Source: a virus. From it: a stretch of DNA of 64,000 nucleotides. The translations under genes and the position numbers were made by a program. Below, one piece after another: positions 5,975 through 45,927 of the stretch (positions are counted from its first letter, which is position 1; each line of letters begins with the position of its first letter). The notes beneath the pieces are model-generated. The model searched no databases and was not told the origin of the DNA. It saw nothing but the letters and a program-made list of their open reading frames with translations. The DNA lies in IMG/VR virus record IMGVR_UViG_3300041585_000108, positions 11,319 through 75,318 of that record; one strand, given 5' to 3'.

Positions 5975-6281
5975 CTGGCTTTCCTTCCAACTCGACTCTA
6001 ATCCCGTATGATTCCAGGACCTTTTTAACCATTTCAATATAATCTATAACTCTTAATCTCATACTTCCATCGTACTGTGAAAAATTATCTTCATATAGTC
6101 TGATTGCTAAAAACTCAGGATATTTTACTATATCCATCTGTAAGTCGTAAGCTGGGCTAGTAAGCTCTCTTACTTTTCTTGCCATTTCTTTTGTATAAAA
6201 AACTGGTTTGTTTGCTTCCCCAGTCCATTCATTAATTCCAAATTTAAAATGATCTTTATTTTTGTCTATAAAGTTAGCCAT
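5958..6281 (-). CDS. hypothetical protein
   Basis: 107 aa, translationally coupled to whiB. Confidence 0.75.
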   Translation of the reverse strand: MANFIDKNKDHFKFGINEWTGEANKPVFYTKEMARKVRELTSPAYDLQMDIVKYPEFLAIRLYEDNFSQYDGSMRLRVIDYIEMVKKVLESYGIRVELEGKPGGRTR

Positions 6282-6582
6282 GAAGCCTCTTTATAGACTT
6301 AGATATTTCTTTTGTCTTATGAGAATTTTTTGATTTATCTGGTATGCCAGAGTTTAAATATACTCCACCCCAAACACCATAGTTATCTGATTTTACTCCA
6401 GCAGCATAACAAATTGAAATTACTGGGCAAGACATACACGCTTGATCAATGCTCTTAGCAACATTTACATCAGATTCGTATGAGTCAAAAAATAAATTTG
6501 TATCCATTCCTAAGCACAAGGCAAGGTCTTGCCACTCAAAATTATCTTTCTCAAGCCCTAGGCTATTTAAAAATTTTGACAT
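6274..6582 (-). CDS. whiB: WhiB-family Fe-S transcription factor
   Basis: WQDLALC...LFF...CMSCPVISIC...GVWGG (four Cys plus GVWGG turn); start set at ATG 6582. Confidence 0.9.
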   Translation of the reverse strand: MSKFLNSLGLEKDNFEWQDLALCLGMDTNLFFDSYESDVNVAKSIDQACMSCPVISICYAAGVKSDNYGVWGGVYLNSGIPDKSKNSHKTKEISKSIKRLHG

Positions 6583-6793
6583 ATTTTGCTGGAAGCTTCC
6601 ATAGCCCGTCATTATTGATTGCAAATTCTTCTGCAATCCCCCATTTATTTCTAAACAATCCTTTATTATTTGTAAATCCTAATTGATCTTTTTCCCAAAT
6701 AACTAATGAATAATTATTCCAAAATGAATCAAGGTCTTTGGACTTGGCTTTTTTAATTAACACATCTACGCCAAGCTCAGTTAGATTAAGCAA
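6563..6793 (-). CDS. hypothetical protein
   Basis: 76 aa, TTG start with AGGAAG SD, directly downstream of tRNA-Leu. Confidence 0.7.
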   Translation of the reverse strand: MLNLTELGVDVLIKKAKSKDLDSFWNNYSLVIWEKDQLGFTNNKGLFRNKWGIAEEFAINNDGLWKLPAKYVKIFK

Positions 6794-6809
6794 TTGTCTT
6801 CCTGTCTAG

Positions 6810-11257: not shown

Positions 11258-11324
11258 ACTAATTTTTTGTTATCCCTTCAATAAATTTTTTTGTTTAATT
11301 AAAATCATAATTAAAATATTTTAT

Positions 11325-19136: not shown

Positions 19137-19190
19137 ATGTATTCTTTCTTCTCTCTAATAGTATAGCATTAAAATAAATTGCTGTGAAGC

Positions 19191-22657: not shown

Positions 22658-22680
22658 CTTAATTCTCCGCCAAAATCATA

Positions 22681-23355
22681 TTACCAGTCTAAATTGCTGC
22701 TAGTAGCAGAATCAGATTCTGGTTCATGACTTCCGCCTTCACCATTAAAGAAAGCTTCTTGTTCCGTGTAAGGCATGTCACGAACAGCCAAAGTCTCTAA
22801 ATCATAGAGTTCTAAGGTAGAGTCATCAAACTTCACTTCATCTTTTGCAAGAGGAATAATAGTATAGCTTGTGTCTGTTTTTGTTCCTGTACGTTTAATA
22901 CGCCACATGAGATTTGTGATAGATCCCATTTCTCCAGCATATTCAATTAGTGTAGGTGTAATTGTTTTCCCGCTTGAACCTTGGGAAAGAATTGCAACAT
23001 ATGGCTCTTCTTTTCCATCATCAATTAAAACATTCATGTAAAGTCGTGAACGACCTTTCCATCCTGCCTTGTAGTCTTTACGGTGTTGCTCACAACCATA
23101 ACACTTTCCTTGGTCTTCCATTGAGCATAGCGCCTTGCGCTTATAATCTTTTGGGTTAGTGTGCTCTACTGCAATAAACCCTAGTCCGTTTTTTTCGTTA
23201 TAGGATGGTGAATCTGGATCGAGTTCCTGCAAAAACCTTACTTTAACGCTTTCTGCATCTTCCAGCTTTGCCCAACGTGCTTTGGTGCCATCGCCACTTG
23301 GTTGTGGCCTGTCCATTACTTGATTTAGTCCTTTTAACCCTTTTACGATACCCAT
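22681..23355 (-). CDS. single-stranded DNA-binding protein (gp32-like)
   Basis: VRFL...EH...C...CYGC Zn site, KRTG..TDTSY, acidic C-terminal tail ending in W; lies between primase and DnaE. Confidence 0.7.
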   Translation of the reverse strand: MGIVKGLKGLNQVMDRPQPSGDGTKARWAKLEDAESVKVRFLQELDPDSPSYNEKNGLGFIAVEHTNPKDYKRKALCSMEDQGKCYGCEQHRKDYKAGWKGRSRLYMNVLIDDGKEEPYVAILSQGSSGKTITPTLIEYAGEMGSITNLMWRIKRTGTKTDTSYTIIPLAKDEVKFDDSTLELYDLETLAVRDMPYTEQEAFFNGEGGSHEPESDSATSSNLDW

Positions 23356-23411
23356 GTTATCCTCTTCTTATTTGTAGGTGATGGTATAGATCCATCTGTT
23401 ATTTTATTATA

Positions 23412-24407
23412 TCATATCCAAGAACGATATTCAATATCTGATACTGAGTTTTTTATACAGTATTTGATCTCTTCATCTGTTAAATCCCCTGCATCTTTTG
23501 CATCATGTGGATAAACTTTATTGTAATCAAATGCTGCCCACATAATATCTTTGTTCCTTAATTTGCTTGAAATTGACTTTCCTAATTCTCTTCCAGCTTC
23601 ATCAGCATCAGTCATTATGATTATCTTGTTAAAAAATCTATTCAATAAGCTTTGTTGTTCATTAGATAAAAATCCTCCTAAAGTAGCAACTACATTTGGG
23701 AATCCAGCTTGATGAATTCTTATAGCATCAAAGTTAGACTCACACACAATTACTTGCTCTCCAATTTTCTTTGCCCTATGAACATTGAACAATGTCTTGC
23801 TTTTAGGAAGGCTAGTGCTATTTTTAAAAGATTTACCCTCTATAGATCTTCCCACTAACCCAATTGGTTTTCCGTCTGGACTGTGTACTGGAGTGATAAC
23901 CATGCTCATTGATGATGAATATCCTAGTCCAAAATGATCTGAGGAATCTTTATCTATTCCCCTGCTTTTTAAATAGTTTATTGCTAGGATATTAGAGCCT
24001 AATTCTGTATGAAGCCTATCTAGTATCTCCTGAGAAAACTCTTCAAACTTTGGCTTATCTTCTAGCATATCTGACATTAGCTCATCAAAATTATTTAGTG
24101 ACTCTGTTTCTTTATTTGCTATTAGCCTTAATGATTCAAAGTCGTTCTTGTGCATAGTTCTTTTAATTAATTCAATCAGGGTTCCAACCTCACTGCATGC
24201 TGGATTAAAACAAATAAATGCTCCAGATCTTTGGCTTACGCTAAAGCTAGAGGTATTTCTATTAGAATGAAATGGGCAATAGCATAGAAAGTCATTTCCA
24301 GTTTCACCAACAATATCTAAACCGATTTCTTTTAATATTGATTTGATGTGGCTGGGGGCATACTCCGTGGTATTAATTTGTTTTGAGTTGTACCCTCTAA
24401 TTGCCAT
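23412..24407 (-). CDS. dnaG: DNA primase (Zn-finger plus TOPRIM)
   Basis: CPFH...CFNPAC, VCESNFDA, DADEAG, KDAGD. Confidence 0.9.
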   Translation of the reverse strand: MAIRGYNSKQINTTEYAPSHIKSILKEIGLDIVGETGNDFLCYCPFHSNRNTSSFSVSQRSGAFICFNPACSEVGTLIELIKRTMHKNDFESLRLIANKETESLNNFDELMSDMLEDKPKFEEFSQEILDRLHTELGSNILAINYLKSRGIDKDSSDHFGLGYSSSMSMVITPVHSPDGKPIGLVGRSIEGKSFKNSTSLPKSKTLFNVHRAKKIGEQVIVCESNFDAIRIHQAGFPNVVATLGGFLSNEQQSLLNRFFNKIIIMTDADEAGRELGKSISSKLRNKDIMWAAFDYNKVYPHDAKDAGDLTDEEIKYCIKNSVSDIEYRSWI

Positions 24408-24634
24408 GACTTCTTCTTTCCTACATATATACCATGAAGAGTCATTAAGAATCTCCATGTCTCGCCCGTAAACTCTATTGAGAATGCTGGGTCCATATCT
24501 AAAACTCTTATATAGCCTTTGCCACGCATGTCTTGTACCAACAAGTTTTCATACTGTGGCCTTAAACTTATAAGTTGTGCATTGTCATAAAACTCTACTT
24601 CAATTTGAAATCTTTTAATTTTTTTGTGCGTCAT
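24332..24634 (-). CDS. hypothetical protein
   Basis: Between helicase and primase; start set at ATG 24634. Confidence 0.65.
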   Translation of the reverse strand: MTHKKIKRFQIEVEFYDNAQLISLRPQYENLLVQDMRGKGYIRVLDMDPAFSIEFTGETWRFLMTLHGIYVGKKKSWQLEGTTQNKLIPRSMPPATSNQY

Positions 24635-25862
24635 TGGCAAAAGGGTTTTCATAAATTTCTTTGACAACACCTCTGTTGATATCCCAATCTAAAAATACTC
24701 CAAAGTCATGTCCATGTCTATTTTTTCTAGAAACAATTTCAATCATATCGGTACCCTTGTACTTATGAATAGCCATAGCCATATCTGCATCATACTCAAT
24801 TGCTTTAGACCATGCAACCTGACTCATCATTGGAGGGTTATCTTGATCTGTAATATCATCTGCTGTGGCAGCAGTAATATCGATAATAGGAATATTGTTT
24901 CTTACCGCTAAGTTTTTAAACTCACGAGAAATATTCATATTGCGTTCTGTTGGTGCCTTAGAATTATTATTATCTGTAAATAGCTGATGGTAATCAAGGA
25001 TAACAATGTCTGGCTTATGCTGATCAATCTTAGCTTGAATAGCATTTGGCGTTACGTTTCCAGAGCCTTCATTTGAAACTAAAATAAACTTATTCTTGTC
25101 CGCAAACTTTTTACTAGACCATGTTCTGAAGTCATCAATATTAATATCGCCTTTAGAAAAATCACTGGCCTTAAATAAACCAGATCCAAGCATAGTATAA
25201 ATACGATCACGCATATTCTCTGGAGTCATTTCAAGAGAAACAATCATTGGCTTAAATCCTTGCTCCCAAGCTTTGCAAGCTAAATATGAGGTAAACCATG
25301 TCTTTCCTCTTCCTGGCCAACCAATGGCTACGATAAGGTGTCCTGGAGCCATTCCAGTAGGGTATGCTAAATCGATTGACTGAAATCCTGTCCTAATACC
25401 TGGAGAGCCACCCATCTCGTCTGTACGGACCTTCAGAGCCATTAAATGCTTAATTGCATTATCTGCATCAGTTACATCTAGGTCTCTTACGTTATTAGTA
25501 TATTTGTTTAAACTAGAAAGCTGAGATTGCAATTCTCCAATTACTCTGGAGGCTACATCTTCTTTTAGCATTGAGCCGCCTCGAATAAGAATACTCTTTA
25601 GTTTATGAGAAAGAAATTCATTCTTAAGATTATCTAAATAGTATGCTGTTTCTGCAGTAGCATTTAAATCTGGCTCAAAGTCTTTAAACTTTTCTTGCAG
25701 TATTCCAACTTCAGGTATTGACTTAAACTTATTGTAATAGGATTTTAATCCATCCCAAACATCTCCGTGGGAGGTAAATAACTCATCTACATTTTCAGCC
25801 ATGACTGTGCTGATATCTTTATTCTTGCATATAGCAGAAATTAACGTAGCTTCTGTATTCAT
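24615..25862 (-). CDS. dnaB: DnaB-like replicative helicase
   Basis: GWPGRGKT, SLEM, ILDYHQL, IEYDAD, KNRHG. Confidence 0.93.
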   Translation of the reverse strand: MNTEATLISAICKNKDISTVMAENVDELFTSHGDVWDGLKSYYNKFKSIPEVGILQEKFKDFEPDLNATAETAYYLDNLKNEFLSHKLKSILIRGGSMLKEDVASRVIGELQSQLSSLNKYTNNVRDLDVTDADNAIKHLMALKVRTDEMGGSPGIRTGFQSIDLAYPTGMAPGHLIVAIGWPGRGKTWFTSYLACKAWEQGFKPMIVSLEMTPENMRDRIYTMLGSGLFKASDFSKGDINIDDFRTWSSKKFADKNKFILVSNEGSGNVTPNAIQAKIDQHKPDIVILDYHQLFTDNNNSKAPTERNMNISREFKNLAVRNNIPIIDITAATADDITDQDNPPMMSQVAWSKAIEYDADMAMAIHKYKGTDMIEIVSRKNRHGHDFGVFLDWDINRGVVKEIYENPFANDAQKN

Positions 25863-32595: not shown

Positions 32596-35500
32596 TTAAA
32601 CATAAATCGACCTACAAACTATTTTTGTTGATGGCGATTGACTGTACCCTTGCTCAATATCCAAGACTATATATTTGCCAGATACCTGACCTACATCTTC
32701 TGTTGAATATACTAGGTTACTTGGGTAAGATATCTCTACAATATCTCCAGTTTCTATTAATGGGTTTGGGAATATATCTAGAGATAAAACAGTTTGTTGT
32801 TTAGACCATTGTGTTCTCATCCAATCTGAAAGAGCTTTAGCCTCTGATTCTTTTTGAATCCATGTAGATTCAAATGCTACCTGCTCCTCATTTTTTGTAG
32901 ACAAAAACTCTGGATCAATGTACTCAAATGGGTCTAAAGGAGCTATTGTTTCTCCTACAACTATAAAGCTTTTTTCTCCGCCGTCTGCTAAATCAACAAA
33001 TGTTCCTGTGTTATTTAAAATGTATGCATCAATTCCAAAGGATGTGGCATTGTATCCAAGCAGGGAAACATTTGGGTTTAATATAATTTGTGGGTATTTT
33101 ACAAATCCTGGGCGGGTGGCATATCTGGTAGATATTTTTTTAATCTCTCTAGCAACTGGGCCAAACTCTTGAACCCAAGGAGCTTTTGCAGTACTTGATG
33201 AAGTTCCGCTAGCTAAAAAATCTCCAAATATATTTTTTAAAGAAGTTGCTGCTCCTATATAAGACCCATAATTGTCGTAGCTGGAAGGCTTAAGAAAATC
33301 ATCTTTGCTTAAAACTGAAGTATATATATAATCAAATGCAGACTCACCTAAAATTCCTATCAGTCCTACCTTGTTTGTCATAGTTATTGATTCATTCCCC
33401 ACGGAAGTGTCTGTTGCAGTAATTGTACTGTTATTAAATTTAATCTTAAATATTCTTTTTCCAACACTTTGAGAAACCTTAACTTCTATTCTGTAAAGTT
33501 CTCCGCCAGATACTCCAGTAATTGAATTGTCTTCAGTTTTTTGAGTATCAGATATTGGTGTTTCAATTCCATTTTTTATTTTAACTAATTGTACGTCTCT
33601 AGAACTTAATCCTTTGTTTGCAACGTTTTGAGAAGTAGACATTTTTAATATATATCCATCTAAGTTGTTTGCAGACAATCCAATACCTAGTCCTGCAGAC
33701 ACACTTTGCTCTCCAGTAATTCTTCCATTAGAATCTGTGGCTAATTTAAAAAACATTGCTGTGCCAATAGAAAAATATTGTTCTGCTGCAAATGGTTCTG
33801 ATGTTGTAGTTGCGTAATAATAGTAATCGCTTTTAGGTGGAACGACTATCTTTAACAAAGATCTGGATATTTTTTTTGCAGATCCGTCTGTTTCCTGTAA
33901 AGAAAAAATTGATTGTTCTAGCGTATTAGTTTTTGTTACTGACTTTGCCGTTGGAATATTTACTTTGGATCCAGACCATAAACTTTTAATGCTATCTAGG
34001 TTTACTTCGTGAGAATCTCCTACCCCTATTCCTTTGCCAGTTGCATCAAATGCATTTCTTTCTTTAATTCTATATTTTAACGTTGGCTTGAATGAACCAA
34101 TTACGCTTTCTCCTAAAAATTTTGCAATGTCGGAGTCAGACGTGATCCACTTATTTACAATTGTATTTGGAGCGCTGATGGGCTTATATTGAAATTGAAT
34201 TGCGTCATACTCAATAATCTCTTTGTTTATTAAAAAGTAACCGCTCTTATTGTAAAAAGAAGTGTCTGTTAGTCCGCTGTATACTGTTATTGGCGACAAA
34301 GATATTGTTCCTAGTTTAGCTGCTGGATCATTTACTAAATCAACTGGTGCAGATGCATTTAAAGTTTCTTGTAGTGCCGCTGCCCCTAACGCAGAAGGAG
34401 GGGAGACATATAGGTTATCTGAAGCTCCAGTATAGTTTGTACTAATAATTGGAGTGTATATAACCTTAGCAGCTTTAACAGAAGGAACAGTTTCTTTTGT
34501 CAAAGAAATAATGTTAGGAAGATTAGAAGATTTTTTTTCGCTTCTAAGCTTAAAGCTAGAAGGTCTTTCTTTATCAAACAAATAATCTCTTGGATAAAAC
34601 TGAAGTTTATCGTAGTTATCAAATGTAGCAATCATTTGAGTATCTCTGCACAGATCTTGTATATGCTGCCAAACAGTTTTAGTATCATCTGTAAACCAAT
34701 AAAGGGGAACAATAGTTGCAGAGTCCACAACAGATAAATTATTTTTGCCATAAGTATTAAAGTTATAGCTTGTAAATCCAACTCCATCTAGAAGTCTTCT
34801 AATAATAGCCTGAGAAGGAGCATTTTGAATTACTATGTCTGGGGCTATTATTTCTTGTAAAAATTTTGCTCCGTCTAAGCCCTGGATATCAATATCTCCA
34901 AACTCAGATATAGTAAATGAGTCTATGTAAAATACTCCTTGAGGTATTGTGTCTGAGCCTATTATATTAAATGGCATTACCTTTACATTCTTATAAAGAT
35001 TTATATTTGATTTATCAAATGCTTTTGTCTTGTCGTATTCTATTCCTTTTCTGTCAAATCCTTCCAGATTTAAAGTAAGTGCATTTGATGTAACTATTCC
35101 AACTGGGACTATACCAGCAGAATCATCAGAAGACATCTTTGATATTTGAAAAGCAACTATTCTATCTGAAACGTCTTGAATATATCTTGCGCTTACCTCT
35201 ATTACTCCTAAAAATGAGTTTGCAGTATTTATTGACGTAACTGTAATAATTATTTTTTTAATGTTAAATGGAATAGCTGGAGATAAAAATTTTGTGGTGC
35301 TCCAGGTAGACCCATTGTAATAAAGATTAAATACCCCATCATCTGGGACCACTCCATTTGTAGATATAGTTGTTTTTACTCCTGCATGATTTTCAACTTC
35401 AATGGTCCATGCTGTTGGCTTAGAGTAAGAAGTTTCAAATTTAACAACAATATTATTTGTAACCGCAGTTTTAGCAGCTGGATACTCAACAGTAAAATTG

Positions 35501-35892
35501 CAATTAGATAAAGATGTTCCTAGCGCTTGAGGGGAAAGCCAAAATTTGTATTGAAGCTTAGAGCTAGAAAAATAAATTCTTGTTTTTAAATCTCCAGAAA
35601 CGTTATACTTAGGAATTGCTTGAGTTACACTTGGATTATTTATAAAGTAATTTATTCCAGCTACTGCTGGTCTTCTTGGATCTATTATATTAGTAAGAGG
35701 AAATAGTTTTTTAAAAGGATAATATACTTTTCCTGTTACAGGATCTGTTTTAGACGCAGTTTCTACTGGAGAAGTTATTTTTGCTCCATAAATTAGGTCA
35801 TTCATATTATATTCAAGCCAGCATCCGCCAGACATGGAATAGGATGTGGATTGGTTTATTTTATCTAAAGTTGTTGGGCTTACCGTTTGCAT
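32596..35892 (-). CDS. large minor tail protein (tail tip/hub)
   Basis: Second gene after the TMP; C-terminal NPLIETGDIV motif; start ATG 35892. Confidence 0.7.
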   Translation of the reverse strand: MQTVSPTTLDKINQSTSYSMSGGCWLEYNMNDLIYGAKITSPVETASKTDPVTGKVYYPFKKLFPLTNIIDPRRPAVAGINYFINNPSVTQAIPKYNVSGDLKTRIYFSSSKLQYKFWLSPQALGTSLSNCNFTVEYPAAKTAVTNNIVVKFETSYSKPTAWTIEVENHAGVKTTISTNGVVPDDGVFNLYYNGSTWSTTKFLSPAIPFNIKKIIITVTSINTANSFLGVIEVSARYIQDVSDRIVAFQISKMSSDDSAGIVPVGIVTSNALTLNLEGFDRKGIEYDKTKAFDKSNINLYKNVKVMPFNIIGSDTIPQGVFYIDSFTISEFGDIDIQGLDGAKFLQEIIAPDIVIQNAPSQAIIRRLLDGVGFTSYNFNTYGKNNLSVVDSATIVPLYWFTDDTKTVWQHIQDLCRDTQMIATFDNYDKLQFYPRDYLFDKERPSSFKLRSEKKSSNLPNIISLTKETVPSVKAAKVIYTPIISTNYTGASDNLYVSPPSALGAAALQETLNASAPVDLVNDPAAKLGTISLSPITVYSGLTDTSFYNKSGYFLINKEIIEYDAIQFQYKPISAPNTIVNKWITSDSDIAKFLGESVIGSFKPTLKYRIKERNAFDATGKGIGVGDSHEVNLDSIKSLWSGSKVNIPTAKSVTKTNTLEQSIFSLQETDGSAKKISRSLLKIVVPPKSDYYYYATTTSEPFAAEQYFSIGTAMFFKLATDSNGRITGEQSVSAGLGIGLSANNLDGYILKMSTSQNVANKGLSSRDVQLVKIKNGIETPISDTQKTEDNSITGVSGGELYRIEVKVSQSVGKRIFKIKFNNSTITATDTSVGNESITMTNKVGLIGILGESAFDYIYTSVLSKDDFLKPSSYDNYGSYIGAATSLKNIFGDFLASGTSSSTAKAPWVQEFGPVAREIKKISTRYATRPGFVKYPQIILNPNVSLLGYNATSFGIDAYILNNTGTFVDLADGGEKSFIVVGETIAPLDPFEYIDPEFLSTKNEEQVAFESTWIQKESEAKALSDWMRTQWSKQQTVLSLDIFPNPLIETGDIVEISYPSNLVYSTEDVGQVSGKYIVLDIEQGYSQSPSTKIVCRSIYV

Positions 35893-36341
35893 TAAATTTC
35901 TTCCAATGAAATTGATACGTCCCAAAAAGCTTGTGCTGTATCCGCTATTTTTTCTTTAACATTTCTTTTAATTAAATTAAATGAGCATGAGGTAAATGAA
36001 GCTACAAAATCTTCAGTCCTAGTAGAGTTATATGCAATTCTGGCATTAAATGACCCTTGGCCTTTAGCTCCTAAATAAAACGACTTTATGTCTTCTGCCC
36101 CCCAGCCGCCGTCTACGGTCATTGTATAGTATGAAGGAAGCATGCTCCATGAGGTAGATAAAGTCTTCTTGTCGGCTATAAACAGCTTTCTAAGGCTCCC
36201 ATTGGCCATTCTAGAAGTCTGCTCAAACCTTTGGGTATCTATTGATATTGGGGATCTATTATGCTCAGTTAATTTTTGCCAGGTTCCAACGGCATCTTGT
36301 AAAAACAATGCGGAACCTACTGGTAAAACTAAAGCTGCCAT
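35892..36341 (-). CDS. distal tail protein-like
   Basis: Immediately after the TMP; SRMANGSLRK...W...VSISLEEI. Confidence 0.6.
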   Translation of the reverse strand: MAALVLPVGSALFLQDAVGTWQKLTEHNRSPISIDTQRFEQTSRMANGSLRKLFIADKKTLSTSWSMLPSYYTMTVDGGWGAEDIKSFYLGAKGQGSFNARIAYNSTRTEDFVASFTSCSFNLIKRNVKEKIADTAQAFWDVSISLEEI

Positions 36342-39300
36342 TATATATTTTTCCCCTGTCCAACCATTTTAACATTAACCTTAGCTTTTTGTCCAATAAC
36401 AACCTGTGCTTTTTGAATAATCATATTCGATAGTGCTTCAACATCCATCCCATCAGATGCATAAATATTTTGGTTTACAACATATGACGCCCCTGATGTT
36501 GATTGGCCACTTACATTAAATGATGATTGAGGAATCTTATATCGTGGAGAGGCGGCTGCCAACTTATTCATTATGTCATTTGGCATTATATTTGCAGGAG
36601 ATCCAAGGTGAACCATCTCTGGACCCTTTTCTCCAACCAAGAACATTCCTTTTCCGCCCATGACTCCTGTTGCTGCTTTGCCCATATAAACAACTTGCCC
36701 ACCACCAGCGCCACCAACTTTATACTTTTGGCCATTTATTTCAAATGTGTCTCCCAAATTTAATTTTTCTCTTTTAACGATTGCATTTCTAGCTTCAGCA
36801 TTAAGAACATCAACTTTTTTACCATCAAATGTTTTTGACTCCATGCTTTTAGAATAATCTCCAGTAACCTTTACATTCTTTTTTGCTTGTGGATCAATCC
36901 CTTTTACAGCGTTAACAACATCTGCCAAAGTCTTGCCACCCTTGATGCTATCAGCTAATGCCTGATTAACTCCAGAAGAAGCTCCAGATTTTGCAAGTAT
37001 TCCTAGTGCGTTTTGTTCAGGAGATACTGCAACCTTTCTAGTCATAAGCTCTGAGCCCACATATCCTGTTTGAGTTGCATATTTTGAAGACTTAACTCCA
37101 GTTGTTGTTTCTGTTGCTCCTACAAGCCCCGCAGCTTCTCTGCCGCCCTCAACTGTTGCAACATACTGCTCAATTGTTTTCCCTGCAGCAGCTGCATTAC
37201 CATACAAAGCAGTCATAGCATCATTTACTTTATTTATTGCAGCTTCTTGTTTAGTGTATTTGTCTCTAATCTTATCTAAGCTTTCACCAGCTAGGGCTGC
37301 TGAATTTGCAAGCTTTTCTTGTTTATTTGCCATTGCTTCCAAAGCAGCTTGCAATGGTTTATTTGCAGCCTCAGTTGCTTTATCAATTGCTCGTACTTGA
37401 GATTCTGTTTGTTGTTGTGAAGTCAGTGACTCTAAATCAATTCTTAAAGATTGTGCTTTTGCAGTGTCTCCAGTTGAAAAAGCGTTTTCCATTTCAAGTC
37501 TTGTTTTTTCAATTTGTCTTCCAAGATCTGCATCTGATTGTGCAGCAGTTAAGGCTTTCTTTCGTGCATCCGCTAACTTATTATTAGCGTCAACCTGCTT
37601 ATTAAGAGATTTAATTCTATCTTTGTCAGATATTTGTTCTGCTACAGACTGTCCCTTTAGCGCCCTGGTATACGACTTAATTTTTTCTTCTAGTAGCCCT
37701 AAGCTTGTATACTGTTCTTTTAATATGCCAATTTTATTTGTAGATTCAACGACTGATCTAATTTTACTAAATGCTTGAGAAAGCACAGCAGTTTGTGCTG
37801 CATTTAATTCAGATAAGTCTCCTTTATATCCCTGTGCTTGAAGTCTAATCTTTTGATACACACTAACAACAGTATCCAGTCCGTTAATCATTTTTTTAAC
37901 TTCTGGATTTGTTTTAGCCATTTCATCAACTGTACCTTGAGTAATTATAGCTCCAGCTTCTTTAGACTTATTGATTTTATCAATCATTATTTTTTCAGCT
38001 TCTGCATAAGTCAATGATTTTGTTTTCCCAGTTAAATCTTTGGCTACAAGTCTTTCTCTTTTTTCAATCAAGTCGTTGATTCCAGTTTCTGTAGCCATAA
38101 GAGCAGTATTTAATGAAGCCGCTTTTTCTTTATTGCCTTGGGTTTTAGTATCTGTTCCAAAGCTTTCTACAGATGAAACAGCAGAAGTTTGAGCATCTAT
38201 TATTGATCTAAATTTTGAGTTACCCATTGTTGCTGTAATTGATTGATCTTTTTTGTTAGATAATTGAAGCATAGTAAATACTTTTTTAGTTGCTTCATCA
38301 GCAGACATTCCAGCAGCGATTAGCTGCTCTTTAATTCTACGAACAGCATCTGGAACTTTAGTAGAAGGCTGTCTATCTAATGCTTTAATTTGTTCAGCAA
38401 AAGTTTCTTTAACTTCAACTTTTAATTTTTTGTATTCTGCAATAGTCATTTGAAAAGGAGTTCCGCCATCCTTCATACTTTCATAAACAAGTTTATTTGC
38501 AGCGGCCATGTCTTTTGAATCTTGAATGGTCTCTTTAATTTTTGAACCAAAATCTGTAAATCTAAGATTAGCTTTTTTAGCAGCTTCAGCAGTTAATCCA
38601 AAGGTTGATAGGTTTAGTTCTTGTCCTTCTTTATAATGCTTAAATGCTTTATACCCTCCATACAATGCTGCAGCAACGGCAGCCAATGGAAGTATCACTC
38701 CTGCTGCAGCGGCAGCGGTAGCACCAAATCCAGCTGTAACTGCTCCAGAACCAGCACTAAGCAGAGCTCTGCTAGCGATCATTTTGCTAGCTGATTGAAT
38801 TAATTGAGGGCCCGCCATCATTCCAACCATGCTTCCCATCATTGCGCCACTTGAGCCTCCAATCTTTCCTCCAATAGCCGTTCCTGCTGCCATTCCACCG
38901 ATGGTGCCCAACATCATTCCGCCAGCTCCAGAACCACGGGAAATTGGATTTCCTTGATCGTCTAGAGGCCTAGGCTTATTTAAAACAGCTCTTCCGTATT
39001 GAATCGGATTTAGCATAGCTCTTGTTGTATACCCAAGGTTTGCTTTGAAGCCAAGTCTAGCTGCATTTGGAACTCTTGAGGCCTCAACTTTGTTACCACT
39101 TGCGTCAATGTACCCTGGATTGAAAGCAACTCCTGGTGGCCTAGATGCCATTGTTTGTGGACTGAAATATGATTTTCTAACTTGCTCCATCTTTGATAAT
39201 GTTCTACGTGAAGAGTCAGCTAGCTTAGATCCTAATAAACTTATGCCTGCAGACAAATCAGATCCATACATTCTAGCACCTACAATTAATTGATTTGCAG

Positions 39301-42300
39301 AATACTTTAAAGTAGTAGCACTAAATTTAATGTTTTTTCCTAATGTAATTGCATCTTTTTTAACACTAGTGCCTAATGCATATAATGACATCTCTATCTG
39401 TTTTGCGGCTGATTTAAGTGCCGCTTGTGTTTTATTTAAAGATTCATGCCCTAATGTAAGCCCTGGCATGTAAGGCAAAGATCCTTGAACCCCATAAGAA
39501 TTTGTTCTAACTCCACGATTTCCTACAAATGTTGTTCTTGACCCAGATAGCGGACCATCTTTATATTCTGGTTGTGCAACTGGGGCTGGAACATATGCTG
39601 CCGCTTTAGCACGTTTTTCTGCCTCCTGCATTGCTCTTTGTGCTGGATTTCCACTGCGACCATAAGCATACTTTCCAGCTTTAATTATTCCGCCAAGCTC
39701 ATAGTTTGGAGCTATAGTACCACTTTGCTGAGGACTAAATAGTTCTGGACCTTTTTCTCCAACTATATATTTTTGTCCTGCTAAGACTGGACCACCCATT
39801 TCTCTTTTACCAGCAATGCCAAATATTTCTTTCTGTAGTAATGCTGTTAATGGAGTATCTTTTTTAGAATCCCAATTTAAATATTTTTTTCTAAGAATGT
39901 CTTTATCTATTGGGGAAAGCTGTCTAATAAAATTACGATCTGAGATTAAATTTGATGCAGCAGATCTAACTACAGAATCCATTACGTGTGGCTCTAATGC
40001 ATTTTTAAGAGACCCGCTTGCATCCTTTAAATATCCATATGGCTTTTCTTTAGCTAATGCTGCCGCAAATTTATCATAGAATAAATTTTGTGTATTTTTA
40101 GTTAGGCCAGATGTACCAAATAGTTTGTTTCCCATTCCAATTGTAAGAGAATTTACGCCCCATGGGGCTGACTCATACATGCTTGGCTTAGGCGCACCTG
40201 TTGGTCCAAAGCCTGCACCAATTCTGCGCATAGCCATAGATTTCATGACATTGCCAATTACGCCTCCAGCATTAAATTCATTAGCGTTTGATTTAAATGC
40301 ATTATCGCTTAACGATCTTGCGTGTCCTCTTTGTCTTATTCTTAAATCAGTTTCTGTTTTTAATTTAAGTAGAGCAGCTGGAGTTAATTGCTTGGATGCA
40401 GAAGTTTTTACAGCAGAATGAATTCCGTGGAATTCCTCCCAATTTACTTTTCTTCCATCTTCAAGTCTTTTTGTCATGGCTTTATAAAAAATAGCTTCTT
40501 CTTTGTTTAAATCAAATGATTTAATTGTTGCTTTCAGTTTTGGAAGAACTCGATCAATTTCGGAAATCATTTTTTCGTGATATTGTTTTGCCGTCATTCC
40601 TTTTGGTATTTCTAAAGTTGATTCGGCAAAGAATCTTTTTGCACCGCCCTTAACTCCAAGAAGGTTTATCCTTGCTTGATCAGACATTGATGGCATATTT
40701 GGTTCATATGGTCTAAGTCCAGATGCCATTTTAAATACACCAGCATTTCCCATATCGTTTAATGTTCCGCCAGATAAATTATCTCTACTTAAATCTTTAT
40801 CGCCTCTTAAATTGGCTGCAACTAATTGCTTAAAGTAGTCTTTTTCTGTAAATTTTCCAGACTGTTTTACAAATGCTTTATCGTATGGGGACTCCAATAC
40901 CAATAGCTTTCTTTTGCCAGTCGGGTCTGTTGGGTCAATCATAGTCCTTATTGTTTGAACTGGTGTTTTAAGTCCATGGGCTTCTCTTGCAATAATAGTA
41001 GCTCTTTGTTCTGCTAGTGCCGCTCTTTCATCCATAACTGGTTTAACAAATACTACTGATCCATCTGGCTTTTCATAAACTCCGCCAATGCCTGAAACAG
41101 GAAAACTTCTTCCAGATGTAGGAGATCTTAAAGTTCCAAAATCTGTTGGCTTCATTTTGGCAAATCTTCCAGACATAAGAGAAGCATTGATGTCTTCCAT
41201 GTTTTTTCTTGCTTTTCTTTGAGTTTCAACTGCTTTGATCCCTCTAGGCATTCCAAGGAACATTCTTCCATAGTTATATTTACCAGGTTTTACTGCTCCT
41301 CCAATTTCTCCGCCAGAGTTCATGGCAAGTCTTCCGCGGACAAAGAAATTAGCGCGTGGAGTAGGTGCGACTGGCTTTGGTTTTATTGATCGGGTTTTAG
41401 AAGCTTCAAAGACCCTCATGTTTCCACCTAGAGCTTTTACCAAGGATTCTGGTATTGGGCCTTTTCCATTCCATTTGCCAGTAGAAATAAATTCTTCTAT
41501 TTTTGGTAAATTTTTCATAAAATCATTTACATTTTTAAAGCCTAAATATTGTGAAACTCGTTTTGCTCTTAAGATTGCTTCATCTTTTGTTAATGGCACA
41601 TAATCATCAATTCCAAGTCTAGCTGTAAGGGATGCGGAAAAATTATTAAATGGGTCATGCATAGCTGATCCAGCATAACCCCGTGTTGCTATTGGCCCAA
41701 TTGATCTTTCTATATGAGCTCTATCTGCATTTGGATAAAGAGTAGAACGTGGAAATTTTCTTTTTAATATATTTACTATAATAAGTTTTGCTTCTCTGTT
41801 TTTTACATCAGATTGAGATATAGCTCTACGTCTTGCTGCCCATTCTTTATCATTCATCCCAGCGGGTCTTGTTTCAACAAGATCTGGAAAATTTTCTTTC
41901 ATTAATTTTTGTTGAGAGTCTGTATAAGAAAGCCCTACACCATCTCTTAAAAATGATTCATGACTAGCTAAAGAAGATTCTACAAGAAGTGTGGCTTTTT
42001 TAACTGCAATGTCTGGCGTCATTCTAGGATCTTTTGAATTTCTTAATATTGCAGTTGCATCATTTAATATTAAGTTTGGCTTAACGTCCGCCTGATAAGA
42101 TGAAGATGTTAAATAATCTAGATATTCTTTTGTGCGTGTTAGTGCAGACATGCCTACATATTGTGAGCTTGAGTTGCTAAATATTTCTGGTGGTTGTAGG
42201 CCGTATCTATTTTTATTAGACATAACCATTCCGCCAACAGCTTCTCCAGTACTAATTAAAGAGATTGGACGCTTTGTTTTATTTGCTACATCATAAGATT

Positions 42301-45262
42301 GTTTATTTTGCTGATATATCTCTGGGCTAACAACTGTTTCTCCTGGAGTTAATATTGCATCAATCATTCCGCCTGAATTATATCCTTGTCTTGCGGTTGA
42401 TACTAATTTTGGATTATTTTTAGAAGCTTCTTGATTTAATACAAATCCACCAAGGGGGACTTTTGCCATAGTATTATCATAGTTAATGCTTGTATCTCCT
42501 GGTACCACCGCTCCATCTTTTCCTGGATGGTAAACGTATCCTCCGCTATTTAATCCTCTTGGCTTTGTTGTTTGAATGCTGTATCCAGCGCCTGAAGTTC
42601 TAACCCCTAAACCTCTTGCTATTTGATCAACAAGTTTTGAAGTTTCTGTTTTGTGAAATAATTCCTTCATGTTTGATTTTCCAAGAGCGCTTACTACTGG
42701 CTGATTTGTAAGGGGAACCATTCCTAAATTTAATGTTCTTACTTGAGCCGTAGCAATACCCTGAGCTGTTTGAGCCATCATCGCTTCTACTCTTGCATTT
42801 AATGCAAATATTTTAGTTCTTGCTGCTTCAACAGTTAGCTTGCCAGCTTGAAGTTGATCTACTATCATTTCTGTTTCTTTGGCTGCTAAAGAAGTTATCT
42901 TTGTCATTTGTGGAAGAAGAGCTTGATAAGAATCAGTAATTGAAGCAGTCATTGTTCCAGTTGCAGCAATTTCTGTTTTAAGAAGAGCAATCTCTGCTTT
43001 TGACTGCATTGCAATAGCTGCAGTCATTGAGTGCCATTTGGCAGCTTCTGCTGAAACTACTCCAGTTGAAATTCCATTTATAGATGTTACTCCAGGAATC
43101 TTAGGCATATCTGTATTCATGTACACTTGTGGCGCATTTGAAATTCTTTGATTTACAGGCTTTGGTCCAGGAACGGTTGAGAATATTGTTTCGTTAGCTC
43201 TTTGCTCTGCGGTTTTTGATCCAGTTGGAATCATATGGGACATGTCTCTTGAATATGGCTTGCCAGCCAACGGATTATTTTTATCTACAATTCTTCCGCC
43301 AACACCCATTACTGGATTTCCTGCAACGGTGGACATACTATTTGAAGTTGCAATTGTAGATGACATTGCTGATTGTTTTAGCTTTTCAAATGAGGCTGCT
43401 AAGGTCATTACCGCATCAGAAAATGTTGCCGCAGCTTTTGTGTCGCTGTAGAATGATTCTTCTACTGTTTTAGCTGCTGCTGAAGCAGCCACTAACTCTG
43501 GAGTTAATAATTTAAATCCTGTTCCGCCCTTTCCAATATTCTTTAAAGCAAATATACCTTTGATTATGTAACCAAAAAAGTTTGCAAGCACACCCGTAAG
43601 CATGATTATAGGACCAGCGATTGCTACTAGCCCACCAATAAATCCAAGCACTGCTTTGATTGGGCCTGGAAGATTTCCAATAAACTTAAGGATTCCATCT
43701 ATTGCATTTAATACAAATGCTCCAACCTTTAAGAACTGCTCTCCAACGGTTGCAAGCTCTGCTTTGACTGACTCTAGTGCTCTTCTATATTTACCAGATG
43801 CCGATTCAGTAAGGGTCTTTAATTCTCGTTCAGAAATACTCGCAAGGTCTTGTGTGCTTGCTTTCATTAAGTCTAATACTTGTAGCGTCTGGCTTCCTTG
43901 CTTGCCTAAGTTTTCAAACAAAGCATTAATTCTTGCAAACTGAAACTTACCAAAAAGTTGTTCAATTGCTCTTGCTCTTTGTAGTGGCTCTAAAGAATCC
44001 AATGAGTCTTTGAGCGCCATGATTGTGCCAGTTAAGTTTCCAGCATTTTTATCTACAATTCCTGATAGATCAATTCCAAGTCCGTTAAACATCTCTTTTG
44101 CCACTTTAGTTGGATTGATTATAGATGCAAGTGCTGACTTTAATGCGTTAGCTCCTTCAGACGCATTAATTCCGCCTTCTCTCATTGCGGTGAGGTATAA
44201 AGCTAAATCTTGAATATCTCCACCTAATGCTTTAACAACTGGTCCCGCTTTTGGAATTGCTGTTACTAAATCTTCAAGTGTGGTAGATGTCTGGTTTTCT
44301 ACAGCGTTAAGAAAGTCAATTGATTCTGCAAGCTGTGATGTACTTTGGCCAAAAGCAGTTTGAATTGCTAAAGTAGCTTTCATTGCATCTTGTCTATCAA
44401 CTTCACCAAGTACGGCAAGTCTAGTTGTCTGTCTAGTAGAATCTAGTAACTCGGCTCCTTGCTTACCAGTTGCAGCAATATCTGCAGCCAATGATATTGT
44501 TTCTGTAAAGTTTGCGCCTAGGCTTGAAGCAAGTTCTCTAGATAAAGCAGATACATCTCTTCTAACCTGAAGAAGATCTTCTGTTGAGGTTGCTGTTAAT
44601 CCACCATAAACTTTTGTAAGTCTTACAAGCGCTTCATCTGCTTGCTTGAATGCTTTTGCTGCAGCCATACCAAATGCTGCTAGGGGTACTGTAAGTCCTA
44701 CTGTTAACTGACGACCCGCCCACTGAGTATTTTTACCCCAGTTAATTAATTGTCCTGCGCCATTATTCATCACTTTGTTCATGATTGAAAGTTCTTGTCT
44801 TAATAAAGCTGTTTTATTTTTAGTAGCATCTAGTCCAGATTGAACCATTACGTTATACTGCATTAGACCTTGAGCATTTTTACCAAGTGGTTGAACAAAT
44901 GCGTTCTCAAGCATTACCTGCTGTTTAGCTAAATCTTTAACTAATGAGCTAGTCTTTTGTGTGTGGCCTTGCCATGTTTTAAAGTATTGGCCAAGCTTCA
45001 TTTTTCCGCTATCTAAGTTCTGGCCAAACTTAGATACATCTGATGTTAGTGTTACAAAGTGTCTAGAAAACTGGCCAGTGGAGCGCATGGTATCGTCAAA
45101 CTGACGATTCATGACTCCTACCTGGCTAGTTAAGTTTTTGTTTAAACCTATAGTAGTAGTCTGCAGTTTTAGCATTTGTGCCGTCACTGCTTGTAACTGC
45201 GCTGTTAGGCTAGAAAAATTAGCCGTCGCGGTTATGTTGGTGACTATATTTTGATCTGCCAA
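36341..45262 (-). CDS. tape measure protein (TP901-like core) with internal inserted domains
   Basis: 2973 aa, Ala/Gly-rich helical; follows tail chaperones; GLTVPLAAFG, REGG...GANALKS, IEQLFGK, two VGEKGPE motifs. Confidence 0.92.
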   Translation of the reverse strand: MADQNIVTNITATANFSSLTAQLQAVTAQMLKLQTTTIGLNKNLTSQVGVMNRQFDDTMRSTGQFSRHFVTLTSDVSKFGQNLDSGKMKLGQYFKTWQGHTQKTSSLVKDLAKQQVMLENAFVQPLGKNAQGLMQYNVMVQSGLDATKNKTALLRQELSIMNKVMNNGAGQLINWGKNTQWAGRQLTVGLTVPLAAFGMAAAKAFKQADEALVRLTKVYGGLTATSTEDLLQVRRDVSALSRELASSLGANFTETISLAADIAATGKQGAELLDSTRQTTRLAVLGEVDRQDAMKATLAIQTAFGQSTSQLAESIDFLNAVENQTSTTLEDLVTAIPKAGPVVKALGGDIQDLALYLTAMREGGINASEGANALKSALASIINPTKVAKEMFNGLGIDLSGIVDKNAGNLTGTIMALKDSLDSLEPLQRARAIEQLFGKFQFARINALFENLGKQGSQTLQVLDLMKASTQDLASISERELKTLTESASGKYRRALESVKAELATVGEQFLKVGAFVLNAIDGILKFIGNLPGPIKAVLGFIGGLVAIAGPIIMLTGVLANFFGYIIKGIFALKNIGKGGTGFKLLTPELVAASAAAKTVEESFYSDTKAAATFSDAVMTLAASFEKLKQSAMSSTIATSNSMSTVAGNPVMGVGGRIVDKNNPLAGKPYSRDMSHMIPTGSKTAEQRANETIFSTVPGPKPVNQRISNAPQVYMNTDMPKIPGVTSINGISTGVVSAEAAKWHSMTAAIAMQSKAEIALLKTEIAATGTMTASITDSYQALLPQMTKITSLAAKETEMIVDQLQAGKLTVEAARTKIFALNARVEAMMAQTAQGIATAQVRTLNLGMVPLTNQPVVSALGKSNMKELFHKTETSKLVDQIARGLGVRTSGAGYSIQTTKPRGLNSGGYVYHPGKDGAVVPGDTSINYDNTMAKVPLGGFVLNQEASKNNPKLVSTARQGYNSGGMIDAILTPGETVVSPEIYQQNKQSYDVANKTKRPISLISTGEAVGGMVMSNKNRYGLQPPEIFSNSSSQYVGMSALTRTKEYLDYLTSSSYQADVKPNLILNDATAILRNSKDPRMTPDIAVKKATLLVESSLASHESFLRDGVGLSYTDSQQKLMKENFPDLVETRPAGMNDKEWAARRRAISQSDVKNREAKLIIVNILKRKFPRSTLYPNADRAHIERSIGPIATRGYAGSAMHDPFNNFSASLTARLGIDDYVPLTKDEAILRAKRVSQYLGFKNVNDFMKNLPKIEEFISTGKWNGKGPIPESLVKALGGNMRVFEASKTRSIKPKPVAPTPRANFFVRGRLAMNSGGEIGGAVKPGKYNYGRMFLGMPRGIKAVETQRKARKNMEDINASLMSGRFAKMKPTDFGTLRSPTSGRSFPVSGIGGVYEKPDGSVVFVKPVMDERAALAEQRATIIAREAHGLKTPVQTIRTMIDPTDPTGKRKLLVLESPYDKAFVKQSGKFTEKDYFKQLVAANLRGDKDLSRDNLSGGTLNDMGNAGVFKMASGLRPYEPNMPSMSDQARINLLGVKGGAKRFFAESTLEIPKGMTAKQYHEKMISEIDRVLPKLKATIKSFDLNKEEAIFYKAMTKRLEDGRKVNWEEFHGIHSAVKTSASKQLTPAALLKLKTETDLRIRQRGHARSLSDNAFKSNANEFNAGGVIGNVMKSMAMRRIGAGFGPTGAPKPSMYESAPWGVNSLTIGMGNKLFGTSGLTKNTQNLFYDKFAAALAKEKPYGYLKDASGSLKNALEPHVMDSVVRSAASNLISDRNFIRQLSPIDKDILRKKYLNWDSKKDTPLTALLQKEIFGIAGKREMGGPVLAGQKYIVGEKGPELFSPQQSGTIAPNYELGGIIKAGKYAYGRSGNPAQRAMQEAEKRAKAAAYVPAPVAQPEYKDGPLSGSRTTFVGNRGVRTNSYGVQGSLPYMPGLTLGHESLNKTQAALKSAAKQIEMSLYALGTSVKKDAITLGKNIKFSATTLKYSANQLIVGARMYGSDLSAGISLLGSKLADSSRRTLSKMEQVRKSYFSPQTMASRPPGVAFNPGYIDASGNKVEASRVPNAARLGFKANLGYTTRAMLNPIQYGRAVLNKPRPLDDQGNPISRGSGAGGMMLGTIGGMAAGTAIGGKIGGSSGAMMGSMVGMMAGPQLIQSASKMIASRALLSAGSGAVTAGFGATAAAAAGVILPLAAVAAALYGGYKAFKHYKEGQELNLSTFGLTAEAAKKANLRFTDFGSKIKETIQDSKDMAAANKLVYESMKDGGTPFQMTIAEYKKLKVEVKETFAEQIKALDRQPSTKVPDAVRRIKEQLIAAGMSADEATKKVFTMLQLSNKKDQSITATMGNSKFRSIIDAQTSAVSSVESFGTDTKTQGNKEKAASLNTALMATETGINDLIEKRERLVAKDLTGKTKSLTYAEAEKIMIDKINKSKEAGAIITQGTVDEMAKTNPEVKKMINGLDTVVSVYQKIRLQAQGYKGDLSELNAAQTAVLSQAFSKIRSVVESTNKIGILKEQYTSLGLLEEKIKSYTRALKGQSVAEQISDKDRIKSLNKQVDANNKLADARKKALTAAQSDADLGRQIEKTRLEMENAFSTGDTAKAQSLRIDLESLTSQQQTESQVRAIDKATEAANKPLQAALEAMANKQEKLANSAALAGESLDKIRDKYTKQEAAINKVNDAMTALYGNAAAAGKTIEQYVATVEGGREAAGLVGATETTTGVKSSKYATQTGYVGSELMTRKVAVSPEQNALGILAKSGASSGVNQALADSIKGGKTLADVVNAVKGIDPQAKKNVKVTGDYSKSMESKTFDGKKVDVLNAEARNAIVKREKLNLGDTFEINGQKYKVGGAGGGQVVYMGKAATGVMGGKGMFLVGEKGPEMVHLGSPANIMPNDIMNKLAAASPRYKIPQSSFNVSGQSTSGASYVVNQNIYASDGMDVEALSNMIIQKAQVVIGQKAKVNVKMVGQGKNI

Positions 45263-45265
45263 CTA

Positions 45266-45634
45266 CTACTCCCTTTTGTATCCGAGTCCCGCTCCGATAC
45301 CAAAACCTGCTTCTGATGCAAACTGTCCTTGTAGCGAAACTACATCTGACGCATTTGCGGTAATTCCTAAAGCTTTTCTTCTTACATCTTCAAAGCTAGT
45401 GTTTTGTTCTTCTTGCTCGCCACCTTCAAGTTCTACTCCTTGTATGGCGGCCAGAAACTTTCTTTTTTCTGATTCAGACTTTTGCATTGATTTAAAAGTT
45501 TGAATCAATTCTGGCATTGAAAGACTATCTTCCAATTCCTCGTAATTCTTATAGTTTCCTATTAAGAATACTTCTCCTTCTAGCGCAGCTAGATCTAGTT
45601 CTGACCAGCTAGAACCGCTGCTGCTAACAAATTT
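45266..45634 (-). CDS. tail assembly chaperone, -1 frameshift extension (gpT-like)
   Basis: The -1 frame is open from the slippery site through WSELDLAALEGEVFL... to the stop at 45266. Confidence 0.7.
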   Translation of the reverse strand, partial: KFVSSSGSSWSELDLAALEGEVFLIGNYKNYEELEDSLSMPELIQTFKSMQKSESEKRKFLAAIQGVELEGGEQEEQNTSFEDVRRKALGITANASDVVSLQGQFASEAGFGIGAGLGYKRE

Positions 45635-45927
45635 GGATCATCCATCTTTATTCCACCACATACTTCAAGGATTCTATTGATAGTCGGTACGTCAAGTACG
45701 TCTTCAAATGCATCTCTATCTGCTGTTAATTCTGGTAGCTGCTTTTCTAGTGCTACTGCACATGCATCAATCAAAATTGTAAGGGTTTCATCTTCTGTAG
45801 TTACATCAGCTGTTTTTGCAATTGCCGCCATAAATTTTCTAAGCTCTTTAATAGTTAAAGGCTTTAGCTTTACTGTTGCTCCATTTTGTAGCTGAATTTC
45901 TTCTACATCGTATACTGTTGTTGCCAA
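45595..45927 (-). CDS. tail assembly chaperone (gpG-like)
   Basis: Between major tail protein and TMP; AGGAGG SD. Confidence 0.8.
   Translation of the reverse strand: MATTVYDVEEIQLQNGATVKLKPLTIKELRKFMAAIAKTADVTTEDETLTILIDACAVALEKQLPELTADRDAFEDVLDVPTINRILEVCGGIKMDDPNLLAAAVLAGQN
45628..45634 (-). other. -1 programmed frameshift slippery heptamer A AAT TTG
   Basis: X XXY YYZ in the 0 frame; lies between a -1-frame TGA and the 0-frame TAG. Confidence 0.65.

Follow-up and report, generated by a model that had tools for sequence, protein, structure and literature searches.

A predicted protein-kinase-like cassette in the tape measure protein of an uncultured phage

Phage tape measure proteins (TMPs) are known to act as tail rulers, to form channels and to carry wall-cutting enzymes, and these functions are all exerted outside the cytoplasm. 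What, then, might a kinase do inside such a protein? The question is raised by an open reading frame (ORF) of 2973 aa on the minus strand of a 64,000-nucleotide stretch of viral DNA (positions 11,319 to 75,318 of the IMG/VR record IMGVR_UViG_3300041585_000108, hereafter the window), in which a preliminary description had proposed a HipA/PI3-4-kinase-like domain. We found that residues 1333–1667 of this protein form an optional cassette, which is predicted to fold as an atypical kinase with all catalytic residues retained. The cassette represents a new sequence family of the protein-kinase-like (PKL) fold and is not a member of the HipA or PI3K families.

Predicted fold and conserved residues

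The 2973-aa ORF is a TP901-type TMP in a siphovirus tail module. The Pfam search identified the PhageMin_Tail core PF10145 (E of 8.5e-31, 107.8 bits against a cut-off of 33.2), and ten TMP PHROGs matched the ORF, the best being phrog_10030 (E of 4.8e-119). The earlier placement of the kinase-like region inside a TMP was therefore correct. The great length, the hydrophobic segments and the position relative to chaperone-like ORFs and tail-tip genes were also those of a TP901-type TMP. Two hydrophobic blocks were detected by a Kyte-Doolittle scan (19-aa window, mean of at least 1.5), and the kinase cassette is positioned between them (Table 1).

All five motifs that had been read as a kinase pattern were present on this ORF in the claimed order, namely SGIGGVY (aa 1390–1396), VFVK (aa 1404–1407), LAEQ (aa 1416–1419), LRGDKDLSRDNL (aa 1485–1496) and NDMG (aa 1502–1505). 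For the conservation counts, the domain was taken from 243 retrieved proteins and aligned together with the window copy (n = 244, identity down to ∼31%). It was found that K1407, N1495 and D1503 were invariant, as were G1384, G1394, P1434 and Q1479. The catalytic D1490 was kept in 243 of the 244 sequences, and E1418 was Glu in 236 and Gln in 8. Conservation of these Lys, Glu, Asp, Asn and Asp residues in homologues had been named as a check on the kinase assignment, and because it extends over an identity span down to ∼31%, the residues represent a selected active-site signature. The usual His after the catalytic Asp was absent, as had been noticed before; D1490 is followed by L1491, which was kept in 242/244 homologues. 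In its sequence, the D-K-D-L-x-x-x-N loop is closer to the HRDLKxxN of classical protein kinases. At the DFG-like site, the family consensus was D-V-G, and this TMP has D-M-G. Among TMPs of 2600–4300 aa the cassette was 60–79% identical, while the C-terminal part of one such TMP showed an identity of only 27%. The interval 40410–41140 proposed earlier covered the catalytic core, but the whole cassette occupies 40262–41266.

When AlphaFold2 (AF2) was given the single sequence, the pLDDT was only 38.7, and this model was replaced by one based on a multiple sequence alignment (MSA) of 50 sequences, for which a pLDDT of 85.5 and a pTM of 0.80 were obtained, with 209 residues at or above 90. The predicted elements followed one another as β1 to β3 (with K1407 in β3), helix C with E1418, β4 and β5, a helix ending at R1486, the D-K-D-L-S-R-D-N loop, a short β6/β7 hairpin, D1503 and a helical C-lobe, whose helices H204–H329 were modelled at high confidence. 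The model has the bilobal architecture of the PKL superfamily, with a five-stranded N-lobe containing helix C and a helical C-lobe. The β3 Lys, the helix-C Glu, the D-x4-N and the metal-binding Asp were each located on the expected element.

In a structure search of 48,161 PDB representatives/chains that was independent of Foldseek, the best 50 representatives were all enzymes of the protein-kinase-like fold. The highest score was obtained for CotH (5jda; Z 11.7, 218 aa aligned, rmsd 4.0), followed by PI4KIIa (Z 10.0), CtkA (9.9), MavQ (9.8), Golgi casein kinase (Fam20, 9.4), HipA (9.3), ATM (8.6), HipT (8.6) and actin-fragmin kinase (8.5); PI3K/VPS34 were among the structural neighbours at Z 8–9. 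A second comparison over the Foldseek top 1000 chains gave Z values of 10.9 for CtkA, 10.0 for PI4KII alpha/beta and 9.4 for the LepB N-terminal domain. The E-values of Foldseek against the PDB were marginal (∼1e-3), and all listed matches were kinases. Structure prediction had been suggested as a further check, and it supported a kinase-like fold. As the top structural matches were tied within ∼2 Z, no one family can be called as the parent.

Relation to known kinases and occurrence among tape measures

No Pfam model matched the domain, nor any of 20 diverse members at E ≤ 10, and searches of PHROGs and NCBIfam with the domain and the same 20 members gave no match even at permissive thresholds. 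Neither the single sequence nor a profile retrieved anything in sequence searches of the PDB. Alignment of a 20-sequence family profile with Escherichia coli HipA by hhalign gave a probability of 0.4% and was out of register. Because of these negative results, the cassette was assigned to a new kinase-fold family.

Several known families were considered and rejected. Against the HipA toxin kinases (PF07804, HipA_C), there was no Pfam match, and the loop D1490-L-S-R-D-N1495 lacks the His of D-x-H-x-x-N. The PI3K/PI4K family (PF00454) had no match at E ≤ 10 in the 20 members, the DRHxxN His is missing, and the likeness is one of fold only, with Z of 8–10. The CotH kinases (PF08757) were rejected by their sequence model, which had no match at E ≤ 10, though CotH was the top structural neighbour. 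For the T7 kinase (Gp0.7) family, no tblastn similarity was seen in deposited phages, and its DPV differs from the D-M-G (consensus D-V-G) found here. The kinase family of polyvalent proteins (Iyer et al. 2017) did not fit either, as the C-lobe helices are kept in the cassette. What remains of the HipA/PI3-4-kinase-like assignment in the preliminary description is hence the kinase fold, with HipA and PI3K/PI4K among the structural neighbours, whereas membership in these families was not supported by Pfam, by hhalign or by the missing His. A language-model feature search (Atlas) placed the domain nearest to the named clusters LepB_N, HipA_2 and PI3_PI4, which is taken as a lead only.

CotH, an atypical Ser/Thr kinase of the Bacillus spore coat, resembles the cassette in its bilobal kinase fold and in being a kinase attached to a large protein assembly. 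However, the identity is only 8%, and CotH is free-standing and not a phage-tail cassette. The catalytic Asp residues of B. subtilis CotH, D228 and D251, are 23 residues apart (PMC7821199), whereas the distance from D1490 to D1503 is 13. CtkA of Helicobacter pylori (PDB 3akk/3akl/3akj), HipA/HipT, PI4KII, PI3K, MavQ and LepB share the atypical kinase fold (Z 8–10.9 over ∼190–220 residues), and the catalytic Lys, Glu, D-x4-N and Asp are common to them and the cassette. In contrast, no sequence-level relation to CtkA, HipA or the lipid kinases was found, the His of D-x-H-x-x-N or DRHxxN is Leu in the cassette, and neither an antitoxin-type partner nor a lipid-kinase helical domain accompanies it.

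The closest viral structural matches, in BFVD, were large actinophage and uncultured-phage proteins (E of 1e-5 to 2e-2), namely A0A6B9L6W7 (Mycobacterium phage Onyinye), A0A4D6E245 (Gordonia phage GodonK), A0A5Q2F0H9 (Gordonia phage Sixama) and A0A6J5MJB0. They are annotated as ADP-ribosyltransferase, portal protein or PI3/4-kinase; the closest matches, several of them with one of the first two annotations, had E of 1e-5 to 1e-4. Kinase-like modules of a similar kind may thus also be carried by further large phage proteins.

The boundaries of the cassette were obtained from two collinear TMPs which lack it through clean indels. One (P0272) aligned with aa 1–1334 and then with aa 1667–2863, and the other (P0296) with aa 1–1327 and then with aa 1663–1878; in these kinase-less TMPs the GG…KYNYG linker was fused straight to the sequence after FNAGG. 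This junction alignment defines the cassette as aa 1333–1667, with a Gly-Gly linker of its own at the end. At the DNA level it is not flanked by direct repeats, and the linkers are alike only as protein.

With the N-terminal core (aa 150–860) as the query and a kinase hidden Markov model (HMM) to test the matches, it was observed that the kinase was missing from 41 of the 120 nearest TMPs, the core identity being 66–90%. Where the core was at least 80% identical, the median TMP length was 2928 aa with the kinase and 2635 aa without, and this difference of 293 aa indicated that the cassette is a net addition. An N-terminal-core tree of 157 TMPs required at least 15 presence/absence changes, with the caveat that the sample is biased and that within-gene recombination would give an equal effect. 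The position of the cassette also varied: it started at ∼aa 700 in 58 long TMPs and at ∼aa 1200–1400 in 117, and as far as ∼2100 and ∼2800–2850 in single cases. Because close relatives lack the cassette, it was regarded as an accessory payload and not a part of the ruler.

Several enzymatic cassettes coexist within single TMPs of 3000–4300 aa that have peptidoglycan hydrolase or binding domains. Kinase-bearing TMPs with CHAP and LysM in addition (P0085, P0086 and P0088) and others with an OmpA-like domain (P0082, P0103 and P0120) were found, while a Pfam search of three kinase-less TMPs returned PF10145 only. In the TMP of the window, a second variable cassette (aa 1035–1314) lies directly upstream of the kinase. 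It was present in P0272 and P0296 but not in P0267, P0268 and P0276, and it had no Pfam match and no usable match in the Atlas search. N-x-G-G linkers repeat at aa 904, 961, 1314 and 1663, and the TMP looks like an array of cassettes separated by repeated linkers. It was also observed that the GG...VGEKGPE motif, which is typical of TMP C-termini, is present in two copies, one at an internal site and the other close to the true C-terminus.

A phmmer search over 1.84 billion representative proteins gave 167 clusters at 50% identity, and a word-indexed search gave 876 clusters at 90% identity; all of them were from uncultured phages. At least 383 loci with the domain were found in IMG/VR. The full-length homologues were all giant and TMP-sized, and homologues were detected in giant TMPs only. 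A profile search of proteins of 130–844 aa returned 19 matches, 15 of them on contigs of 657–3167 bp and 4 on contigs of 6.6–11 kb, which are likely fragments or split genes and not free-standing kinases. One short protein (P0244, 294 aa, on a 1309-bp contig) matched the kinase C-terminal part with its first 184 residues and also carried the tail-tube domain PF23849; it may reflect a misassembly or an uncommon order of genes. Of 185,579 species genomes, only one gave a match, on an 85-kb contig of a Bifidobacterium metagenome-assembled genome (MAG), which may itself be a phage contig, and hence no evidence of prophage carriage was obtained from these genomes.

Possible role of the cassette and its alternatives

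We consider it somewhat probable that the cassette is an active kinase which is carried in the tail, released on ejection and phosphorylates host targets; the fold is taken from the model, and activity, storage state, delivery, timing and substrate are what we infer. Delivery by the virion at entry had been proposed in the preliminary description, with host defence or translation proteins, or lipids, as putative targets. The cassette would be a self-contained, catalytically competent, ATP-dependent phosphotransferase of the new PKL family. As a segment of the TMP it is present in every tail, where it would probably be stored extended or only partly folded, because three folded kinase domains should not fit side by side in the lumen of the tail tube. 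At adsorption, the TMP would be expelled ahead of the DNA, the two hydrophobic blocks would insert in the host membrane, and the central cassette region would reach the ATP-containing cytoplasm and refold. The kinase could then phosphorylate host targets before phage gene expression, most likely proteins such as defence or signalling components of an actinobacterial host. A kinase requires ATP, and this is available in the cytoplasm only, so that a cytoplasmic location of the central TMP region is the simplest reading. A bolder proposal, which we hold only tentatively and think doubtful as a whole, is that the central TMP may serve as a rack of swappable effector cassettes, of which the kinase is one. 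It would be kept unfolded in the tube, pass into the cytoplasm before the DNA and fold again on arrival, with host defence or signalling proteins being phosphorylated within seconds of adsorption and in advance of all phage gene expression.

Parts of this scheme have precedents. At infection, TMPs are ejected from the tail and help to form a membrane channel (bioRxiv 10.64898/2026.03.06.709160, PMC6116005), and in T4 the TMP forms the membrane channel for DNA (bioRxiv 10.64898/2026.03.06.709160). Active wall-degrading domains are embedded in TMPs, as in the Rpf-like motif of mycobacteriophage TM4, T5 pb2 and the muramidase of phiIPLA35 (PMC6116005). Like the proposed kinase, they are enzymatic modules in a tail ruler, dispensable for ruler function, that act at infection. 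But they work on peptidoglycan outside the membrane without ATP, whereas a kinase needs ATP and must reach the cytoplasm. Injected polyvalent proteins of phages and conjugative elements carry kinase domains (Iyer et al. 2017, PMC5512222). They are alike in that an enzyme domain is fused to a virion or transfer protein entering with the DNA, in their cassette-like shuffling, and in a host-modifying role proposed by analogy with the T7 kinase. Their kinase family, from (pro)phages of Verrucomicrobia-Chlamydia and Bacteroidetes, lost the whole C-terminal lobe (PMC5512222), whereas the cassette keeps a helical C-lobe, sits in a TMP and occurs in probable actinophages. TMPs go unmentioned in that survey (PMC5512222), and in the full-text literature searched we found no description of a kinase inside a TMP or of a cytoplasmic role of a TMP-borne enzyme. 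The T7 protein kinase Gp0.7 (T7K), which disarms host defences (PMC13645617), provides a functional precedent for a phage kinase acting very early on host proteins. Nevertheless, T7K is expressed from the entering genome and is not virion-borne, and its DFG equivalent is DPV (PMC13645617) instead of the D-M/V-G of the cassette family.

Several points weigh against an active kinase delivered at entry. The central TMP part would have to arrive in the cytoplasm, the sole compartment with ATP, and the enzymes so far known in TMPs have the cell wall as their target, on the outer side of the membrane. An α/β domain of 35 kDa would need to outlast storage in a narrow tube and regain its fold afterwards. 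As the TMP is made late, the kinase would also be present in the producing cell and could act there. The Gly-rich loop is unusually long, and the spacing from N1495 to D1503 is only 8 residues; in classical kinases, ∼13 residues separate that Asn from the DFG-type Asp. Both protein and lipid kinases are included in the structural neighbours. Finally, tblastn against 50,697 deposited phage records gave no match with the domain at E ≤ 1e-5 and only chance matches up to E of 10, and there is therefore no cultured system.

The presence of the kinase in the producing cell leads to an alternative which we think unlikely, namely that its targets are the TMP, further tail proteins or host proteins, phosphorylated in a CotH-like manner ahead of tail assembly or in the course of it. 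CotH was the single best structural match, and its kinase activity patterns a protein shell (PMC7821199). The producer cytoplasm certainly contains ATP, and refolding would be unnecessary. However, the cassette is missing in close relatives that still make TMPs and presumably tails, so that it is not needed for assembly. There is no obvious reason to fuse a producer-only enzyme into the ruler, no free-standing form was found, and the lead of CotH is weakened by CtkA and PI4KII, with which it is tied within ∼2 Z. Those scores also bear on the substrate. A lipid or small-molecule kinase of the PI4KII/MavQ/LepB type might act at the host membrane and modify phosphatidylinositol or another envelope lipid for channel formation or membrane remodelling. 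PI4KII alpha/beta, MavQ, the LepB N-terminal domain and PI3K/VPS34 were all among the top neighbours, the Atlas lead pointed to LepB_N, HipA_2 and PI3_PI4, the cassette lies between two membrane-like hydrophobic blocks, and the host is probably an actinobacterium. Many actinobacteria make phosphatidylinositol. We nevertheless regard this as improbable, in that the protein kinases CotH, CtkA, Fam20C and HipA scored equal or higher, PF00454 gave no match even at the permissive threshold, and the loop, without the DRH histidine of PI3/4-kinases, resembles that of protein kinases.

Kinase-fold proteins with other chemistries exist, and the cassette might have the fold without the function, either as a pseudokinase spacer or structural ruler module or as an enzyme of another kind, for instance one with SelO-like AMPylation. 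The short spacing and the long Gly loop are atypical, and the ∼293 aa added by the cassette are uncompensated and could simply lengthen the tail. But a spacer would not retain Lys, Glu, Asp, Asn and Asp over 244 sequences with identity down to ∼31%, and in pseudokinases one or more of the catalytic residues are typically missing. The invariant catalytic residues therefore argue against a purely structural role, and a lack of kinase function appears very improbable.

Returning to the kinase delivered at entry, what is new here is a kinase-fold sequence family in a new vehicle, the tail ruler; virion-borne enzymatic effectors as such are a known theme. A conserved, apparently active kinase in the ruler would imply either that a portion of the TMP gets into the cytoplasm and folds again there, or that a tail enzyme has a role not yet conceived. 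If it acts at entry, it would be a pre-emptive tool for host takeover or anti-defence, T7-kinase-like but delivered as a protein, and would extend the idea of the polyvalent injected protein from head proteins to the tail. If the central TMP did serve as a rack of effectors, the siphovirus tail lumen would be a route for injecting protein effectors, and the TMP would be shown to reach the cytoplasm. The near-identical TMPs with and without the cassette offer a natural presence/absence series for testing the function of the cassette and whether globular inserts count in tail length.

Tail module and genome context

The virus record from which the window was taken is linear, 75 kb long and an estimated 66% complete, and the genome should therefore be ∼110 kb or more. 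The phage has a large, self-sufficient siphovirus genome with its own replication genes (Table 1). The host is probably an actinobacterium, as judged from the WhiB-family transcription factor gene of the phage; genes of this kind mark actinobacteria and the phages that infect them. The PF02467 match of this gene lies at 17679–17852 of the record (G000:C1), corresponding to 6361–6534 of the window, and among 14 control genomes the WhiB family matched Corynebacterium only. The GC content of the window, 31–46%, would suit a low-GC actinobacterial lineage. The 75-kb record, at ∼66% completeness, contained no gene for an FHA protein, a PP2C phosphatase or a classical Pkinase.

Table 1. Positions of the cassette, its motifs and other features in the window
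Feature	Position	Strand	Remarks
Optional kinase-fold cassette, TMP aa 1333–1667 (335 residues), own closing FNAGG linker included	40262..41266	minus	cleanly absent from collinear P0272 and P0296
Predicted protein-kinase-like domain, ∼aa 1342–1652	40307..41239	minus	AF2 model: N-terminal helix, five-stranded N-lobe with helix C, helical C-lobe
Extended Gly-rich nucleotide loop, aa 1384–1396	41075..41113	minus	G1384 and G1394 invariant, S1386 and Y1396 nearly so
K1407, β3 lysine	41042..41044	minus	244/244; model strand E81-86
E1418, helix-C glutamate	41009..41011	minus	236 E, 8 Q; model helix H90-105
Catalytic loop R-G-D-K-D-L-S-R-D-N, aa 1486–1495	40778..40807	minus	D1490 243/244, N1495 244/244, D1488 238 D and 6 N; after model helix H151-164
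DFG-like D-M-G, aa 1503–1505	40748..40756	minus	D1503 244/244, G1505 241/244
Upstream Gly-Gly linker (MNSGGEIGG...KYNYG), aa 1314–1332	41267..41323	minus	kept in kinase-less TMPs; junction alignment with P0272 and P0296
Second variable cassette, aa 1035–1314	41321-42160	minus	
TMP gene (P0001), 2973 aa	36341..45262	minus	single open frame
PhageMin_Tail core PF10145, aa 242–438	43949..44539	minus	Pfam search
Hydrophobic, membrane-helix-like block 1, aa 510–573	43544..43735	minus	Kyte-Doolittle
Hydrophobic block 2, aa 2173–2207	38642..38746	minus	Kyte-Doolittle
GG...VGEKGPE copies, aa 1820–1861 and 2866–2882	39680-39805, 36617-36667	minus	
Two small ORFs (89 and 110 aa) directly upstream of the TMP	45266..45927	minus	ORF list
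Tail-tip genes downstream of the TMP: 149-aa ORF and 1109-aa minor tail protein	32596..36341	minus	phrog_1194, phrog_10359 (E 5.6e-72)
Replication block: RecA, DnaE-type Pol III alpha (1089 aa), DnaG-type primase, DnaB-type helicase	18132-25862	minus	
WhiB-family gene (host marker)	6274..6636	minus	PF02467, 44.3 bits, above cut-off
Five tRNA genes: Arg-TCT, Ser-GCT, Glu-TTC, Met-CAT (tight cluster) and Leu-TAA	9511-9825, 6809-6893	minus	
Carbamoyltransferase gene	9803-10996	minus	PF02543 and PF16861, E 2e-53
454-aa ORF with acidic/proline repeat, GC-richer stretch (46%)	614-1978	minus	weak PARP-like match, below cut-off
Subtilase (Peptidase_S8) gene next to the 454-aa ORF	2917-4062	minus	

The two small ORFs upstream of the TMP are candidate tail assembly chaperones as judged from their position, and the 110-aa one matched phrog_10504. 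Head-tail adaptor-like genes were located farther upstream of the TMP than these two ORFs. The carbamoyltransferase is an unusual auxiliary enzyme, and its listed ORF shares 23 bases with the tRNA-Met gene.

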